DNA from: Escherichia coli | GTDB taxonomy: Bacteria; Pseudomonadota; Gammaproteobacteria; Enterobacterales; Enterobacteriaceae | NCBI RefSeq assembly: GCF_003334765.1 | Contig: NZ_QOWT01000010.1 | DNA length: 64,000 nt | Strand: one strand, 5' to 3' | Part shown: piece after piece, positions 13,209-46,549 of the stretch | Numbering within the stretch: position 1 is the first letter of the stretch | Layout: each line of letters starts with the position of its first letter | Notes under the pieces: model-generated | Told to the model about the DNA's origin: nothing | Seen by the model: the letters and a program-made list of their open reading frames with translations, nothing else | Database searches by the model: none | Translations under genes and position numbers: made by a program

Positions 13209-15395
13209 ATGTCCGATCGTATCGATAGAGACGTGATTAACGCGCTAATTGCAGGCCATTTTGCGGATCCTTTTTCCGTACTGGGAATGCATAAAACCAC
13301 CGCGGGACTGGAAGTCCGTGCCCTTTTACCCGACGCTACCGATGTGTGGGTGATTGAACCGAAAACCGGGCGCAAACTCGCAAAACTGGAGTGTCTCGAC
13401 TCACGGGGATTCTTTAGCGGCGTCATTCCGCGACGTAAGAATTTTTTCCGCTATCAGTTGGCTGTTGTCTGGCATGGTCAGCAAAACCTGATTGATGATC
13501 CTTACCGTTTTGGTCCGCTAATCCAGGAAATGGATGCCTGGCTATTATCTGAAGGTACTCACCTGCGCCCGTATGAAACCTTAGGCGCGCATGCAGATAC
13601 TATGGATGGCGTCACAGGTACGCGTTTCTCTGTCTGGGCTCCAAACGCCCGTCGGGTCTCGGTGGTTGGGCAATTCAACTACTGGGACGGTCGCCGTCAC
13701 CCGATGCGCCTGCGTAAAGAGAGCGGCATCTGGGAACTGTTTATCCCTGGGGCGCATAACGGTCAGCTCTATAAATACGAGATGATTGATGCCAATGGCA
13801 ACTTGCGTCTGAAGTCCGACCCTTATGCCTTTGAAGCGCAAATGCGCCCGGAAACCGCGTCTCTTATTTGCGGGCTGCCGGAAAAGGTTGTACAGACTGA
13901 AGAGCGCAAAAAAGCGAATCAGTTTGATGCGCCAATCTCTATTTATGAAGTTCACCTGGGTTCCTGGCGTCGCCACACCGACAACAATTTCTGGTTGAGC
14001 TACCGCGAGCTGGCCGATCAACTGGTGCCTTATGCTAAATGGATGGGCTTTACCCACCTCGAACTACTGCCCATTAACGAGCATCCCTTCGATGGCAGTT
14101 GGGGTTATCAGCCAACCGGCCTGTATGCGCCAACCCGCCGTTTTGGTACTCGCGACGACTTCCGTTATTTCATTGATGCCGCACACGCAGCTGGTCTGAA
14201 CGTGATTCTCGACTGGGTGCCAGGCCACTTCCCGACTGATGACTTTGCGCTTGCCGAATTTGATGGCACGAACTTGTATGAACACAGCGATCCGCGTGAA
14301 GGCTATCATCAGGACTGGAACACGCTGATCTACAACTATGGTCGCCGTGAAGTCAGTAACTTCCTCGTCGGTAACGCGCTTTACTGGATTGAACGTTTTG
14401 GTATTGATGCGCTGCGCGTCGATGCGGTGGCGTCAATGATTTATCGCGACTACAGCCGTAAAGAGGGGGAGTGGATCCCGAACGAATTTGGCGGGCGCGA
14501 GAATCTTGAAGCGATTGAATTCTTGCGTAATACCAACCGTATTCTTGGTGAGCAGGTTTCCGGTGCGGTGACAATGGCTGAGGAGTCTACCGATTTCCCT
14601 GGCGTTTCTCGTCCGCAGGATATGGGCGGTCTGGGCTTCTGGTACAAGTGGAACCTCGGCTGGATGCATGACACCCTGGACTACATGAAGCTCGACCCGG
14701 TTTATCGTCAGTATCATCACGATAAACTGACCTTCGGGATTCTCTACAACTACACTGAAAACTTCGTCCTGCCGTTGTCGCATGATGAAGTGGTCCACGG
14801 TAAAAAATCGATTCTCGACCGCATGCCGGGCGACGCATGGCAGAAATTCGCGAACCTGCGCGCCTACTATGGCTGGATGTGGGCATTCCCGGGCAAGAAA
14901 CTACTGTTCATGGGTAACGAATTTGCCCAGGGCCGCGAGTGGAACCATGACGCCAGCCTCGACTGGCATCTGTTGGAAGGCGGCGATAACTGGCACCACG
15001 GTGTCCAGCGTCTGGTGCGCGATCTGAACCTCACCTACCGCCACCATAAAGCAATGCATGAACTGGATTTTGACCCGTACGGCTTTGAATGGCTGGTGGT
15101 GGATGACAAAGAACGCTCGGTGCTGATCTTTGTGCGTCGCGATAAAGAGGGTAACGAAATCATCGTTGCCAGTAACTTTACGCCGGTACCGCGTCATGAT
15201 TATCGCTTCGGCATAAACCAGCCGGGCAAATGGCGTGAAATCCTCAATACCGATTCCATGCACTATCACGGCAGTAATGCAGGCAATGGCGGCACGGTAC
15301 ACAGCGATGAGATTGCCAGCCACGGTCGTCAGCATTCACTAAGCCTGACGCTACCACCGCTGGCCACTATCTGGCTGGTTCGGGAGGCAGAATGA
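13209..15395 (+). CDS. glgB: 1,4-alpha-glucan branching enzyme
   Basis: 728-aa ORF, GH13 family; first gene of the glgBX-glgCAP cluster. Confidence 0.97.
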
Positions 15396-17365
15396 CACAA
15401 CTCGCCATTGGCAAACCCGCTCCCCTCGGCGCGCATTACGACGGTCAGGGCGTCAACTTCACACTTTTCTCCGCTCATGCCGAGCGGGTAGAACTGTGTG
15501 TCTTTGACGCCAATGGCCAGGAACATCGCTATGACTTGCCAGGGCACAGTGGCGACATTTGGCACGGTTATCTGCCGGATGCGCGCCCGGGTTTGCGTTA
15601 TGGTTATCGCGTTCATGGCCCCTGGCAACCCGCCGAGGGGCATCGCTTTAACCCGGCGAAGTTGTTGATTGATCCTTGCGCGCGGCAAATTGACGGGGAG
15701 TTTAAAGATAACCCGCTGCTGCACGCCGGTCATAATGAACCTGACTATCGCGACAACGCCGCCATTGCGCCGAAATGCGTAGTGGTGGTTGATCACTATG
15801 ACTGGGAAGATGATGCCCCGCCGCGCACGCCGTGGGGCAGCACCATCATTTATGAAGCCCATGTCAAAGGATTAACGTACTTGCACCCGGAGATCCCGGT
15901 CGAGATCCGTGGCACTTATAAAGCCCTCGGGCATCCGGTGATGATCAACTATTTGAAACAATTGGGCATTACCGCGCTGGAACTGCTGCCAGTGGCGCAG
16001 TTTGCCAGTGAACCACGTCTGCAACGCATGGGGCTAAGTAACTACTGGGGTTACAACCCGGTGGCGATGTTTGCGCTGCATCCGGCGTATGCCTGCTCGC
16101 CAGAAACGGCGCTGGATGAGTTTCGCGATGCAATCAAAGCACTGCATAAAGCGGGTATCGAAGTCATTCTTGATATCGTGCTCAACCATAGTGCGGAACT
16201 GGACCTCGACGGCCCGTTATTCTCGCTGCGTGGGATCGATAACCGTAGCTATTATTGGATAAGAGAAGACGGCGATTATCACAACTGGACCGGTTGCGGC
16301 AACACGCTCAATTTGAGTCATCCGGCGGTGGTGGATTATGCCAGCGCCTGCCTGCGTTATTGGGTAGAAACCTGCCACGTCGATGGTTTCCGCTTTGATC
16401 TGGCGGCAGTCATGGGCCGTACGCCAGAGTTCCGTCAGGATGCGCCGTTGTTTACCGCTATCCAGAACTGCCCGGTGCTCTCGCAGGTGAAGTTAATTGC
16501 TGAACCGTGGGATATCGCTCCTGGTGGTTATCAGGTGGGAAATTTCCCGCCGCTGTTTGCCGAGTGGAACGATCATTTCCGCGATGCTGCCCGTCGTTTC
16601 TGGCTACATTATGATTTGCCTCTGGGGGCGTTTGCCGGGCGTTTTGCTGCCTCCAGCGATGTTTTTAAACGTAATGGTCGTCTGCCGAGTGCCGCGATTA
16701 ATCTCGTCACCGCGCATGACGGTTTTACGCTTCGCGACTGCGTTTGCTTCAACCATAAACACAATGAAGCAAACGGAGAAGAAAATCGCGACGGGACCAA
16801 CAACAATTACAGTAACAATCATGGTAAAGAAGGGTTAGGCGGTTCTCTTGACCTGGTTGAACGGCGGCGCGACAGCATTCACGCCCTGTTAACAACGTTG
16901 TTGCTCTCCCAGGGTACGCCGATGTTACTGGCCGGTGACGAACATGGTCACAGCCAGCATGGCAATAACAATGCCTACTGTCAGGATAACCAATTAACCT
17001 GGTTGGACTGGTCGCAGGCAAGCAGTGGTTTAACCGCATTTACCGCCGCGTTAATCCATCTGCGCAAGCGCATTCCCGCTTTGGTGGAGAATCGCTGGTG
17101 GGAAGAAGGCGACGGCAATGTCCGTTGGCTAAATCGATATGCTCAACCTTTAAGCACGGATGAGTGGCAAAACGGGCCGAAACAGCTGCAAATTCTGCTC
17201 TCGGATCGCTTTTTGATCGCAATTAACGCCACGCTTGAGGTAACAGAGATTGTTTTACCTGCTGGGGAGTGGCACGCCATTCCCCCATTCGCTGGAGAGG
17301 ATAACCCAGTGATTACGGCTGTCTGGCAGGGACCTGCACACGGATTGTGTGTGTTCCAGAGATGA
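15392..17365 (+). CDS. glgX: Glycogen debranching enzyme
   Basis: 657-aa ORF, GH13; start overlaps the glgB stop by 4 bp. Confidence 0.97.
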
Positions 17366-17380
17366 TAAAAAAGGAGTTAG
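17337..17380 (+). promoter_or_regulatory. glgC leader with CsrA-binding hairpin and Shine-Dalgarno GGA site
   Basis: CACACGGATTGTGTG forms a stem CACAC / GTGTG with GGA in the loop; a second GGA lies in the SD (AAGGAG) just before the glgC ATG. This is the published CsrA target architecture. Confidence 0.6.
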
Positions 17381-17382
17381 TC

Positions 17383-18678
17383 ATGGTTAGTTTAGAGAAG
17401 AACGATCACTTAATGTTGGCGCGCCAGCTGCCATTGAAATCTGTTGCCCTGATACTGGCGGGAGGACGTGGTACCCGCCTGAAGGATTTAACCAATAAGC
17501 GAGCAAAACCGGCCGTACACTTCGGCGGTAAGTTCCGCATTATCGACTTTGCGCTGTCTAACTGCATCAACTCCGGGATCCGTCGTATGGGCGTGATCAC
17601 CCAGTACCAGTCCCACACTCTGGTGCAGCACATTCAGCGCGGCTGGTCATTCTTCAATGAAGAAATGAACGAGTTTGTCGATCTGCTGCCAGCACAGCAG
17701 AGAATGAAAGGGGAAAACTGGTATCGCGGCACCGCAGATGCGGTCACCCAAAACCTCGACATTATCCGCCGTTATAAAGCGGAATACGTGGTGATCCTGG
17801 CGGGCGACCATATCTACAAGCAAGACTACTCGCGTATGCTTATCGATCACGTCGAAAAAGGCGCACGTTGCACCGTTGCTTGTATGCCAGTACCGATTGA
17901 AGAAGCCTCCGCATTTGGCGTTATGGCGGTTGATGAGAACGATAAAATTATCGAATTCGTTGAAAAACCTGCTAACCCGCCGTCAATGCCGAACGATCCG
18001 AGCAAATCTCTGGCGAGTATGGGTATCTACGTCTTTGACGCCGACTATCTGTATGAACTGCTGGAAGAAGACGATCGCGATGAGAACTCCAGCCACGACT
18101 TTGGCAAAGATTTGATTCCCAAGATCACCGAAGCCGGTCTGGCCTATGCGCACCCGTTCCCGCTCTCTTGCGTACAATCCGACCCGGATGCCGAGCCGTA
18201 CTGGCGCGATGTGGGTACGCTGGAAGCTTACTGGAAAGCGAACCTCGATCTGGCCTCTGTGGTGCCGGAACTGGATATGTACGATCGCAATTGGCCAATT
18301 CGCACCTACAATGAATCATTACCGCCAGCGAAATTCGTGCAGGATCGCTCCGGTAGCCACGGGATGACCCTTAACTCACTGGTTTCCGGCGGTTGTGTGA
18401 TCTCCGGTTCGGTGGTGGTGCAGTCCGTTCTGTTCTCGCGCGTTCGCGTGAATTCATTCTGCAACATTGATTCCGCCGTATTGTTACCGGAAGTATGGGT
18501 AGGTCGCTCGTGCCGTCTGCGCCGCTGCGTCATCGATCGTGCTTGTGTTATTCCGGAAGGCATGGTGATTGGTGAAAACGCAGAGGAAGATGCACGTCGT
18601 TTCTATCGTTCAGAAGAAGGCATCGTGCTGGTAACGCGCGAAATGCTACGGAAGTTAGGGCATAAACAGGAGCGATAA
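17383..18678 (+). CDS. glgC: Glucose-1-phosphate adenylyltransferase
   Basis: ORF 17347-18678 trimmed to [33 protein letters not shown]... (431 aa). Confidence 0.97.
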
Positions 18679-20111
18679 TGCAGGTTTTACATGTATGTTC
18701 AGAGATGTTCCCGCTGCTTAAAACCGGCGGTCTGGCTGATGTTATTGGGGCATTACCCGCAGCACAAATCGCAGACGGCGTTGACGCTCGCGTACTGTTG
18801 CCTGCATTTCCCGATATTCGCCGTGGCGTGATCGATGCGCAGGTAGTATCCCGTCGTGATACCTTCGCCGGACATATCACGCTGTTGTTCGGTCATTACA
18901 ACGGGGTTGGCATTTACCTGATTGACGCGCCGCATCTCTATGATCGTCCGGGAAGCCCGTATCACGATACCAACTTATTTGCCTATACCGACAACGTATT
19001 GCGTTTTGCGCTGCTGGGGTGGGTTGGGGCAGAAATGGCCAGCGGGCTTGACCCATTCTGGCGTCCTGATGTGGTGCATGCGCACGACTGGCATGCAGGC
19101 CTTGCGCCTGCGTATCTGGCGGCGCGCGGGCGTCCGGCGAAGTCGGTGTTTACTGTGCACAACCTGGCCTATCAAGGCATGTTTTATGCACATCACATGA
19201 ATGACATCCAATTGCCATGGTCATTCTTTAATATTCATGGGCTGGAATTCAACGGACAAATCTCTTTCCTGAAGGCCGGTCTGTACTATGCCGATCACAT
19301 TACGGCGGTCAGTCCAACCTACGCTCGCGAGATCACCGAACCGCAGTTTGCCTACGGTATGGAAGGTCTGTTGCAACAGCGTCACCGTGAAGGGCGTCTT
19401 TCCGGCGTACTGAACGGCGTGGACGAGAAAATCTGGAGTCCAGAGACGGACTTACTGTTGGCCTCGCGTTACACCCGCGATACGTTGGAAGATAAAGCGG
19501 AAAATAAGCGCCAGTTACAAATCGCAATGGGGCTTAAGGTTGACGATAAAGTGCCGCTTTTTGCAGTGGTGAGCCGTCTGACCAGCCAGAAAGGTCTCGA
19601 CCTGGTGCTGGAAGCCTTACCGGGTCTTCTGGAGCAGGGCGGGCAGCTGGCGCTACTCGGCGCGGGCGATCCGGTGCTGCAGGAAGGTTTCCTTGCGGCG
19701 GCAGCGGAATACCCCGGTCAGGTGGGCGTTCAGATTGGCTATCACGAAGCATTTTCGCATCGCATTATGGGCGGCGCGGACGTCATTCTGGTGCCCAGCC
19801 GTTTTGAACCGTGCGGCTTAACGCAACTTTATGGATTGAAGTACGGTACGCTGCCGTTAGTGCGGCGCACCGGTGGGCTTGCTGATACGGTTTCTGACTG
19901 TTCTCTTGAGAACCTTGCAGATGGCGTCGCCAGTGGGTTTGTCTTTGAAGATAGTAATGCCTGGTCGCTGTTACGGGCTATTCGACGTGCTTTTGTACTG
20001 TGGTCCCGTCCTTCACTGTGGCGGTTTGTGCAACGTCAGGCTATGGCAATGGATTTTAGCTGGCAGGTCGCGGCGAAGTCGTACCGTGAGCTTTACTATC
20101 GCTTGAAATAG
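18678..20111 (+). CDS. glgA: Glycogen synthase
   Basis: 477-aa [25 protein letters not shown]...; ATG overlaps the glgC stop (TAATG). Confidence 0.97.
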
Positions 20112-46321: not shown

Positions 46322-46549
46322 TTAACAGGAAACCGCTTCCACTTCTAATAAGGCCAGATCTTTTTTGCGTAATACCAGGCTCACACGACGGGTTTCGATA
46401 TGAATGGGGTCGCCGAGTGGAGCGACGCGCACCACATTAAAAGAGGAGCCAGGTAACATGCCAAGAGAAAGCAGTTTTTGGCGATATGCCGGGCTGATTT
46501 CACGGGAAAAGCCAGTGATTTTCCACGCAGTATCTGGAGTGTATTGCAT
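46322..46549 (-). CDS. feoA: Ferrous iron transport protein FeoA
   Basis: 75-aa [38 protein letters not shown]... Confidence 0.95.

Follow-up and report, generated by a model that had tools for sequence, protein, structure and literature searches.

The known CsrA operator of Escherichia coli glgC is partly encoded in the last codons of glgX

The junction between glgX and glgC in Escherichia coli carries the CsrA translational operator of glgC, a reading to which we assign a probability of about 0.93. The operator is real and conserved, but it is already known and was described decades ago. The original prediction, made from the DNA letters, had pointed to a CsrA-binding leader that shows one GGA in a hairpin loop and another in the Shine-Dalgarno sequence while overlapping the 3' end of glgX. 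This core reading is borne out and matches published accounts (PMC7652899, PMC2896534, PMC6028588). As a bare pattern, the hairpin occurs at chance frequency. The comparative data, consisting of codon bias, covariation and consensus-fold rank, place the element above chance and show selection at the RNA level.

Organization of the locus

The window, meaning the whole 64-kb stretch of DNA that was analysed, is the asd-glgBXCAP region of E. coli. The 701 bp around the site have a match of at least 99% identity in every one of 5426 complete E. coli genomes, with the genes annotated as glgX and glgC. The features of the junction are as follows.

17250-17382, + strand: untranslated glgC leader of the published binding assays, containing six GGA; 5' end deduced
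17264-17286, + strand: hairpin A of the leader (GGGGAGUGGC/GCCAUUCCCC), a putative element from folds
17291-17310, + strand: hairpin B of the leader, from folds, covariation and GGA retention
17336-17352, + strand: hairpin C, high-affinity CsrA site, from folds, RNAalifold, the Gly651 codon and literature
17363-17368, + strand: glgX stop TGA followed by an in-frame TAA, from sequence, ORF list and RefSeq annotation
17371-17376, + strand: glgC Shine-Dalgarno AAGGAG with a second, lower-affinity CsrA GGA (17373-17375), from sequence and literature
17383-17385, + strand: glgC start codon ATG, from RefSeq annotation of the identical region and the ORF list
17383-18678, + strand: glgC coding sequence, from the same two sources

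An in-frame ATG at 17362, which overlaps the glgX stop, was considered as an alternative start and rejected because it is not conserved. The primers and the designation "+46 to +179" in PMC2896534 correspond to 17295-17428, so that +1 falls at about 17250, some 133 nt ahead of the glgC ATG. Six GGA fall within 136 nt of the leader, a density reached by just 0.6% of 136-nt windows in the 64 kb.

A GGA-loop hairpin upstream of the Shine-Dalgarno sequence

Hairpin C is located in the final ten codons of glgX, spanning GlgX codons 649-654 (A-H-G-L-C-V). Its letters are those originally predicted (CACAC at 17337-17341, GGATT at 17342-17346, GTGTG at 17347-17351), and folding of 17320-17390 recovers it in both the minimum free energy (MFE) and the centroid structures. 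The MFE and centroid structures of the full 151-nt leader contain it as well. Both folds extend it by one pair over the first description, giving a 6-bp stem (GCACAC/GUGUGU) and a 5-nt GGAUU loop that holds GGA at 17342-17344. Moreover, RNAalifold returns it as the consensus for 31 and for 39 sequences, and the GGA is single-stranded in the short loop in the MFE, centroid and 39-sequence consensus structures, as in CsrA/RsmA operators. The isolated hairpin has a dG of -7.9 kcal/mol (z = -2.1), and the fold z-scores of the 71-nt stretch (-0.46) and the 151-nt leader (-0.78) are non-significant. Folding also predicts a lower helix in E. coli (GGGAC/GUUCC), which was dropped from the model as it is not conserved across the compared species. 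The sequence 3' of the hairpin is GUUCCAGAGAUGA.

SELEX (Dubey 2005, in the summary given by PMC7652899) yielded RUACARGGAUGU as the consensus ligand of CsrA, placed in a hairpin loop. By our own count, GCACACGGAUUG agrees with this consensus at 8 of 12 positions, ACA and GGA among them, and mismatches it at others. Like the SELEX ligands, the glgC hairpin combines ACA with GGA, places GGA in the loop and has a short stem. Unlike them, it has a 5-nt rather than the typical 6-nt loop, a stem of 6 bp where most ligands have at most four contiguous pairs, and an extra U ahead of GU.

The second GGA overlaps the Shine-Dalgarno sequence of the regulated gene, again as in CsrA/RsmA operators. AAGGAG is separated from the glgC ATG by 6 nt, and the folds of both 17320-17390 and the 151-nt leader leave it unpaired. 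The original prediction had put both GGA elements inside glgX. That holds for the hairpin alone, since glgX ends with the TGA at 17363-17365, 11 nt past hairpin C and 5 nt ahead of AAGGAG; the Shine-Dalgarno sequence sits outside, in the 17-nt glgX-glgC intergenic spacer. The starts of the two GGA are 31 nt apart, leaving an interval of 28 nt, which lies in the range of 10-63 nt (optimum above 18 nt) over which one CsrA dimer can bridge two sites (PMC7652899).

Evidence for selection at the RNA level

Simple occurrence says little about function. Across the window, 5-bp hairpins with GGA in the loop number 24 on the plus strand and 18 on the minus strand, and shuffles give 20 +/- 4. The full pattern of hairpin, Shine-Dalgarno GGA and start codon has seven other matches in the window, in six distinct places. 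One match, at 46409, was checked; it runs antisense to feoA and was discarded as a chance match.

The encoded peptide further complicates any reading of the stem. Ala-His-Gly-Val/Leu-Cys-Val corresponds to GCN CAY GGN NNN UGY GUN, which is self-complementary, and first and second codon positions of the conserved Ala-His-x-x-Cys-Val dictate four of the six pairs. Additionally, Serratia, Yersinia and Pantoea retain the same stem with no GGA in the loop, so the stem alone is no proof of RNA function. Together with the chance rate of GGA-loop hairpins, these facts favour a hairpin that is a mere by-product of the GlgX C-terminal peptide, with no role as RNA. We nevertheless judge this explanation very unlikely, as it conflicts with codon choice, with the behaviour of the free pairs, with the rank of the leader fold and with published binding and mutational data. 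The peptide probably explains the origin of the stem, but not the retention of GGA and the synonymous pairs.

Codon choice was compared across 38 Enterobacteriaceae species, as were the pairs, and consensus folds were computed from 31 and 39 sequences. The loop codon of Gly651 is the rare GGA in 32 of the 38 species (84%), against a mean GGA use of 12.6%, which is the highest GGA share among 49 conserved Gly columns of glgX. Only three Gly columns of glgX are dominated by GGA, and two of them lie inside the leader. The GGA is thus conserved beyond coding need, within Enterobacteriaceae only.

Both stem pairs of hairpin C that are free to vary at synonymous sites do so in a compensating fashion, remaining paired as A-U, G-U or G-C in one case and through C-G and U-A variants in the other. 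In 39 sequences, pair 17338/17350 is GC in 25, GU in 8, AU in 4 and AC in 2, and pair 17341/17347 is CG in 32, UA, UG and GU in one each, and broken in 4. The covariation score of 0.181 is attained by none of 500 shuffles, a control that ignores phylogeny, and the signal is limited to two or three pairs in a handful of lineages. Furthermore, leader windows rank first and second of 207 along glgX for consensus folding energy (-22.8; mean -3.8, sd 4.5), making the leader the top-ranked conserved structure of the gene. The runner-up fold (16918-16963), set within a conserved GH13 motif and free of two-sided covariation, was judged protein-driven.

Other hairpins of the leader

Hairpin B is a second GGA-loop hairpin, 43 nt upstream of hairpin C. 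It has the stem GCUGG/CCAGU and a 10-nt loop, AGAGGAUAAC, with GGA at 17299-17301, which is retained in 32 of 38 species. Its pair 17293/17308, formed by the third positions of Ala634 and Pro639, is CG in 34 species and UA in 4; the change is compensatory and appears in Escherichia and, separately, in Citrobacter sp. L008. Glu636 is encoded by GAG in 90%, ranking second among 20 Glu columns. From these features we infer that hairpin B is likely an additional CsrA site. In hairpin A, the GGA at 17266-17268 is buried in the stem; 95% of cells are paired across 38 species, and changes are one-sided only.

Distribution among Enterobacterales

The original prediction had named two refutations, folds that fail to support the hairpin and non-conservation of the GGA motifs. 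Neither came about, as folding recovers the hairpin and the motifs are kept within Enterobacteriaceae. A GGA in the Shine-Dalgarno region, at about -10, is found in 78 of 80 related loci. Most Enterobacteriaceae loci have the loop GGA, at about -41. None of the roughly 37 loci from other Enterobacterales families does, and the sampled Erwiniaceae, Yersiniaceae and Pectobacteriaceae all lack it. Where the stem persists without it, the loop reads CUCGAUU in Serratia and Yersinia and GGCGU or GGUGU in Pantoea. The high-affinity GGA therefore appears, from these sequence comparisons, to be confined to Enterobacteriaceae. This pattern fits the reported lack of glycogen over-accumulation in a csrA mutant of Erwinia amylovora (PMC5109040).

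Promoter, terminator and family searches

The original prediction also placed a glgCAP promoter within 17337-17383, and this part failed. A scan of 16800-17600 for sigma-70 -35/-10 elements at 16-18 nt spacing gave no sites, although weak activator-dependent promoters would escape such a scan. By eye, TTGATC (17213-17218) and TAACAG (17241-17246) match poorly and are badly spaced, so no promoter is claimed there. The predicted span is downstream of the deduced +1; with the leader starting at about 17250, a glgCAP promoter, if one exists, would lie at least 87 nt upstream of the span.

The very existence of a separate glgCAP promoter is disputed. By the summary in PMC4154780, Montero 2011 argues for a single glgBXCAP operon, and PMC10819704 and PMC3141248 treat a glgC promoter as real. 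Older literature puts glgC promoters inside glgX, and some reviews still give a sigma-70 promoter for glgC. On that basis, conservation of the span could reflect binding of RNA polymerase or an activator to DNA. The chance of this is practically negligible. CsrA sites must be transcribed, so their promoter has to be upstream of them, and the published leader does begin upstream of the span. The empty scan and the single-unit view of Montero also speak against it, as does the conservation itself, which is RNA-like with compensatory pairs.

The position of hairpin C at an operon-internal junction, just ahead of the glgX stop, together with a reported effect of CsrA on glgC mRNA stability (PMC7652899), could instead suit an inter-cistronic attenuator or terminator, or an element of RNA processing or stability, rather than a protein-binding operator. 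We regard this as extremely unlikely. No U-tract follows the hairpin, and a scan of 16800-17600 for intrinsic terminator-like sites (GC-rich stem with U-tract) was empty. The stem is short (-7.9 kcal/mol), and selection acts on the loop GGA, not on stem strength. A search of Rfam with 15000-19000 on both strands (E <= 1) returned no match, and none is expected if the leader has no family.

Relation to known CsrA operators

The CsrA operator reading agrees with experiment. Direct CsrA binding and CsrA-dependent translational repression are published for glgC (PMC6028588, PMC7652899 and PMC2896534). In the last two, the two primary CsrA sites, the hairpin GGA and the Shine-Dalgarno GGA, are credited to the experiments of Baker 2002 and Mercante 2009, and the later summaries disagree on the number of sites, giving "two primary" or "four". 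Mutation of the ACGGA site in a reporter altered repression (PMC6028588). The main text of Potts 2017 (PMC5694010) does not mention glg. The element analysed here is the glgC leader operator of Baker et al. 2002 and Mercante et al. 2009, at the same locus and without difference.

The operators of cstA, ColE7 cel, hcnA and sopD2 share with glgC a GGA in a short hairpin loop, a GGA that overlaps the Shine-Dalgarno sequence and the mechanism of ribosome exclusion. By their descriptions, these operators have their sites within the regulated gene itself, in its leader or the early part of its coding region. In glgC, by contrast, the high-affinity hairpin and the remaining leader are embedded in codons of the upstream gene glgX, so that synonymous positions carry the RNA signal.

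Proposed mechanism and significance

Anatomy, spacing, conservation, codon bias and covariation were computed here, and CsrA binding, dimer bridging, ribosome exclusion and the effects of ACGGA mutation come from the literature. On the operator reading, one RNA-binding surface of a CsrA dimer takes the loop GGA of hairpin C. The tethered dimer can then reach the weaker Shine-Dalgarno GGA downstream with its second surface. CsrA bound there excludes the 30S subunit, blocking glgC translation and secondarily destabilising the mRNA. When the CsrB and CsrC sRNAs sequester CsrA, the Shine-Dalgarno sequence becomes free and ADP-glucose pyrophosphorylase is made, leading to glycogen synthesis. The RNA function is written in the synonymous positions that the peptide leaves available, namely the GGA codon for Gly and two third-position pairs.

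A broader proposal is tentative and, in our estimate, rather unlikely to hold in full. It states that the operator is an invention specific to Enterobacteriaceae, in which a peptide-encoded palindrome was made into a CsrA site by fixing a GGA codon and two synonymous pairs, and that CsrA repression depends on glgX translation. For the first part, we infer an origin of the element within Enterobacteriaceae. For the second, each of the three leader hairpins is located within glgX codons, so ribosomes finishing glgX on a glgBXCAP mRNA would have to melt them and evict CsrA. If so, eviction would happen a few nucleotides upstream of glgC's Shine-Dalgarno sequence, and repression of glgC would differ between operon-length and any internally initiated transcripts.

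Translational repression by CsrA has its founding example in the glgC leader, and the finding thus adds no new mechanism. Its modest added value is evolutionary, as a case of regulatory RNA written into synonymous positions of an upstream gene, with a rare codon for Gly, compensation at two third-position pairs and the GGA-loop hairpin B as the evidence. Another question to which the locus is relevant is the source of glgC expression, either a promoter of its own or the glgBXCAP transcript only; in the latter case, translating ribosomes would traverse the operator. Finally, the apparent confinement of the high-affinity GGA to Enterobacteriaceae may be part of the reason that relatives such as Erwinia differ in how CsrA controls glycogen.

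The glgX-glgC junction and its hairpin

The 701 bases around the flagged span (17337-17383) are at least 99% identical in 5426 of 5426 complete E. coli genomes, and RefSeq annotation of the identical region gives the gene order asd, glgB, glgX, glgC, glgA, glgP. The features discussed below are as follows.

Features of the glgC leader and its flanking genes
15392-17365: glgX, with stop TGA at 17363-65 and a TAA directly after
17264-86: hairpin A (RNAalifold)
17291-17310: hairpin B, loop AGAGGAUAAC with GGA at 17299-301 (RNAalifold)
17336-52: hairpin C, the flagged hairpin (RNAalifold)
17337-41: CACAC arm of hairpin C (sequence)
17342-46: GGAUU loop of hairpin C (sequence)
17347-51: GUGUG arm of hairpin C (sequence)
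17371-76: AAGGAG, the glgC Shine-Dalgarno sequence, in the glgX-glgC spacer
17383: glgC start ATG

The original prediction described a hairpin CACAC-GGATT-GTGTG with GGA in its loop and a second GGA in the glgC Shine-Dalgarno sequence, both inside glgX. The hairpin is present at 17337-51 (...CCUG-CACAC-GGAUU-GUGUG-UGUUCCAGAGAUGAUAAAAAAGGAGUUAGUCAUG), and the second GGA lies within AAGGAG upstream of the ATG. Of these two elements only the hairpin is coding, spanning GlgX codons 649-654 (A-H-G-L-C-V); the Shine-Dalgarno sequence sits 3' of the stop codon, in the 17-nt spacer between the genes. At 17362-17368, a tandem TGA-TAA ends glgX, and a glgC-frame ATG overlaps the stop as ATGA, 7 codons 5' of the annotated start. 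As an alternative glgC start, this ATG lacks a Shine-Dalgarno sequence, is not conserved in other genera and is probably unused.

RNA folding of 17320-17390, which the original prediction proposed as a check, recovers hairpin C in the MFE structure and in the centroid alike; there it gains one pair (GCACAC/GUGUGU, 17336-52) and stacks on a lower helix, GGGAC/GUUCC. It is retained in a fold of the full 151-nt leader, and in isolation has a dG of -7.9 kcal/mol (z = -2.1). The GUGUGUG run within 17337-17353 offers the CACAC arm two pairing registers, with a loop of 5 nt or 7 nt; with the 3' partner slid by -2, 81% of alignment cells are still paired. A role as a terminator or processing element is scarcely credible for this hairpin, which has no U-tract; a scan of 16800-17600 predicted no terminator.

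The bare pattern is not above chance frequency. Counted over the whole 64-kb window, hairpins with a perfect 5-bp stem and GGA in a loop of 4-8 nt number 24 on the plus strand and 18 on the minus strand, versus 20 +/- 4 in shuffles. The fuller pattern of a hairpin followed by GGA and ATG/GTG has seven other matches in the window, at six distinct places; of these, the match at 46409 was checked and lies antisense to feoA. Fold z-scores are -0.46 for the 71-nt stretch and -0.78 for the 151-nt stretch. Because pattern and fold scores are at chance level, significance must rest on comparison and experiment.

Agreement with the published CsrA operator

In a passage citing Baker 2002 and Mercante 2009, PMC7652899 describes a CsrA dimer that is tethered by a high-affinity hairpin site and bridges to the Shine-Dalgarno sequence, blocking translation, with a bridging range of 10-63 nt and an optimum above 18 nt. 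PMC2896534 gives the same account of tethering and blocking. The published ACGGA site corresponds to 17340-44, and the 28 nt between the hairpin GGA and the Shine-Dalgarno GGA fall within the bridging range. Compared with the SELEX consensus RUACARGGAUGU (PMC7652899), the hairpin C site agrees at 8 of 12 positions, among them the invariant ACA and GGA. Summaries differ in the number of sites, given as "two primary" or "four" (PMC7652899, PMC2896534).

The best explanation, with a probability of roughly 0.93, is the published CsrA operator, which would act by ribosome exclusion. The proposed CsrA-binding leader is essentially right and agrees with both sources; its two errors of detail are the Shine-Dalgarno sequence placed inside glgX and the promoter placed in the span. 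The element is genuine and was described before, and what the synonymous-site and lineage analysis adds to it is modest and no discovery.

Codon choice and conserved structure

The glgC locus was taken from 80 species-representative Enterobacterales genomes, and glgX from 38 Enterobacteriaceae species was codon-aligned under protein guidance, without fitting to any RNA structure. At the loop glycine, Gly651, 32 of 38 species use GGA, a conservation limited to that family; over the 49 conserved glgX Gly columns GGA makes up 12.6% of codons, and no other column reaches the GGA fraction of Gly651. GGA dominates just three Gly columns, and columns 651 and 635 both fall within the last 23 codons (p ~0.015, hypergeometric, four Gly columns in the leader). 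At Glu636, the codon is GAG in 90% of species, which ranks second among 20 Glu columns and preserves the GGA at 17299-301 (kept in 32/38 species). Gly625, at hairpin A, is GGG in 89% of species, the top of the 49 Gly columns. The 136-nt leader holds six GGAs, a count found in only 0.6% of 136-nt windows of the 64 kb. The lowest synonymous-codon entropy of the alignment, below the leader's, lies at ~16220-16267 (codons 277-292), which contains the third GGA-dominated column, Gly281 (82%).

RNAalifold on the gap-free alignment recovers hairpins A, B and C. In hairpin C, the peptide forces four of six pairs (GCN CAY ... UGY GUN), and the other two link third codon positions: 17338/17350 is G-C 25, G-U 8, A-U 4 and mismatched 2, and 17341/17347 is C-G 32, U-A 1, U-G 1, G-U 1 and mismatched 4. 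Hairpin B has a 10-nt loop and lies 43 nt upstream of hairpin C; its pair 17293/17308, which joins the third, synonymous codon positions of Ala634 and Pro639, is C-G 34 and U-A 4. The double change is seen in Escherichia and once more, separately, in a single Citrobacter. We infer that the loop GGA of hairpin B may well be one of the further CsrA sites that have been published. Hairpin A, near the leader's 5' end, has the stem GGGGAGUGGC/GCCAUUCCCC, which buries the GGA at 17266-68 and is 95% paired over 38 species with one-sided changes only. The E. coli lower helix GGGAC/GUUCC is not conserved across the Enterobacteriaceae alignment.

The covariation score is 0.181, versus 0.159 +/- 0.004 in shuffles; none of 500 shuffles reaches it, and slid registers score lower. 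This appears supportive, not decisive, since the shuffle control ignores phylogeny. Over 207 sliding 117-nt windows of the glgX alignment, consensus folding energy reaches its minimum in the two that cover the leader (-22.8 kcal/mol versus a glgX-wide mean of -3.8, sd 4.5). The runner-up, 16918-16963 (-18.1 kcal/mol), lies in a conserved GH13 motif, shows no two-sided covariation and is probably protein-driven. That hairpin C is merely a by-product of the GlgX C-terminal peptide would account for the origin of the stem, yet leaves the rare-codon fixation, compensated synonymous pairs and binding data unexplained, making it very unlikely.

Promoter and upstream translation

The original prediction also placed the glgCAP promoter in 17337-17383, where there is none. 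Logic alone rules out a promoter there, since the CsrA sites must themselves be transcribed. From PMC2896534, the leader +1 would lie near 17250, with the ATG at +134, so any promoter for it would be upstream of ~17250, at least 87 nt outside the span. A sigma-70 consensus scan of 16800-17600 detected no promoter; that it should miss a weak, activator-dependent one is unsurprising. Published accounts disagree: a glgC promoter is taken as real in PMC10819704 and PMC3141248, and the Pozueta-Romero group concludes that the genes make up a single glgBXCAP operon, in which glgC contains a sub-operonic promoter.

[quoted passage not shown] Repression may therefore hinge on the level of glgX translation and on which transcript carries glgC; that the effect measurably matters is possible but rather doubtful. 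The literature examined contained no discussion of such eviction.

Distribution across Enterobacterales

A loop GGA at about -41 relative to the glgC start is predicted in most Enterobacteriaceae loci and in none of ~37 loci from Pantoea, Mixta, Serratia, Yersinia, Pectobacterium, Dickeya, Hafnia and others.

Loci without a hairpin-loop GGA at the E. coli operator position
L040-L053, L073: Pantoea, Mixta and relatives
L054-L078: Serratia, Yersinia, Pectobacterium, Dickeya and others

glgX-glgC spacers of 54-81 nt, versus 10-17 nt, occur in Pseudocitrobacter, Trabulsiella and Klebsiella oxytoca (L011:2946-3000, L018:2919-3000, L025:2920-3000) and move the coding hairpin out to positions from -81 to -114. 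A new CCGC-GGAGG-GCGG hairpin lies at -38 in the spacer of L011, and that of L018 has an unusually good fold (z = -3.1). In Yersinia and Edaphovirga (L075, L077, L081) there is a second glgC-like gene, 74-78% identical; its N-terminus differs and no glgX lies upstream of it.

Pantoea keeps the stem, with GGC or GGU as the homologous Gly codon, and Serratia and Yersinia keep a GCGCA/UGCGU stem with the loop CUCGAUU. The lack of a loop GGA in these loci fits a report that glycogen is not over-accumulated by a csrA mutant of Erwinia amylovora (PMC5109040). Since the stem persists without GGA in Pantoea, Serratia and Yersinia, it is apparently the older feature, driven by the peptide, and the GGA apparently a later gain specific to Enterobacteriaceae.
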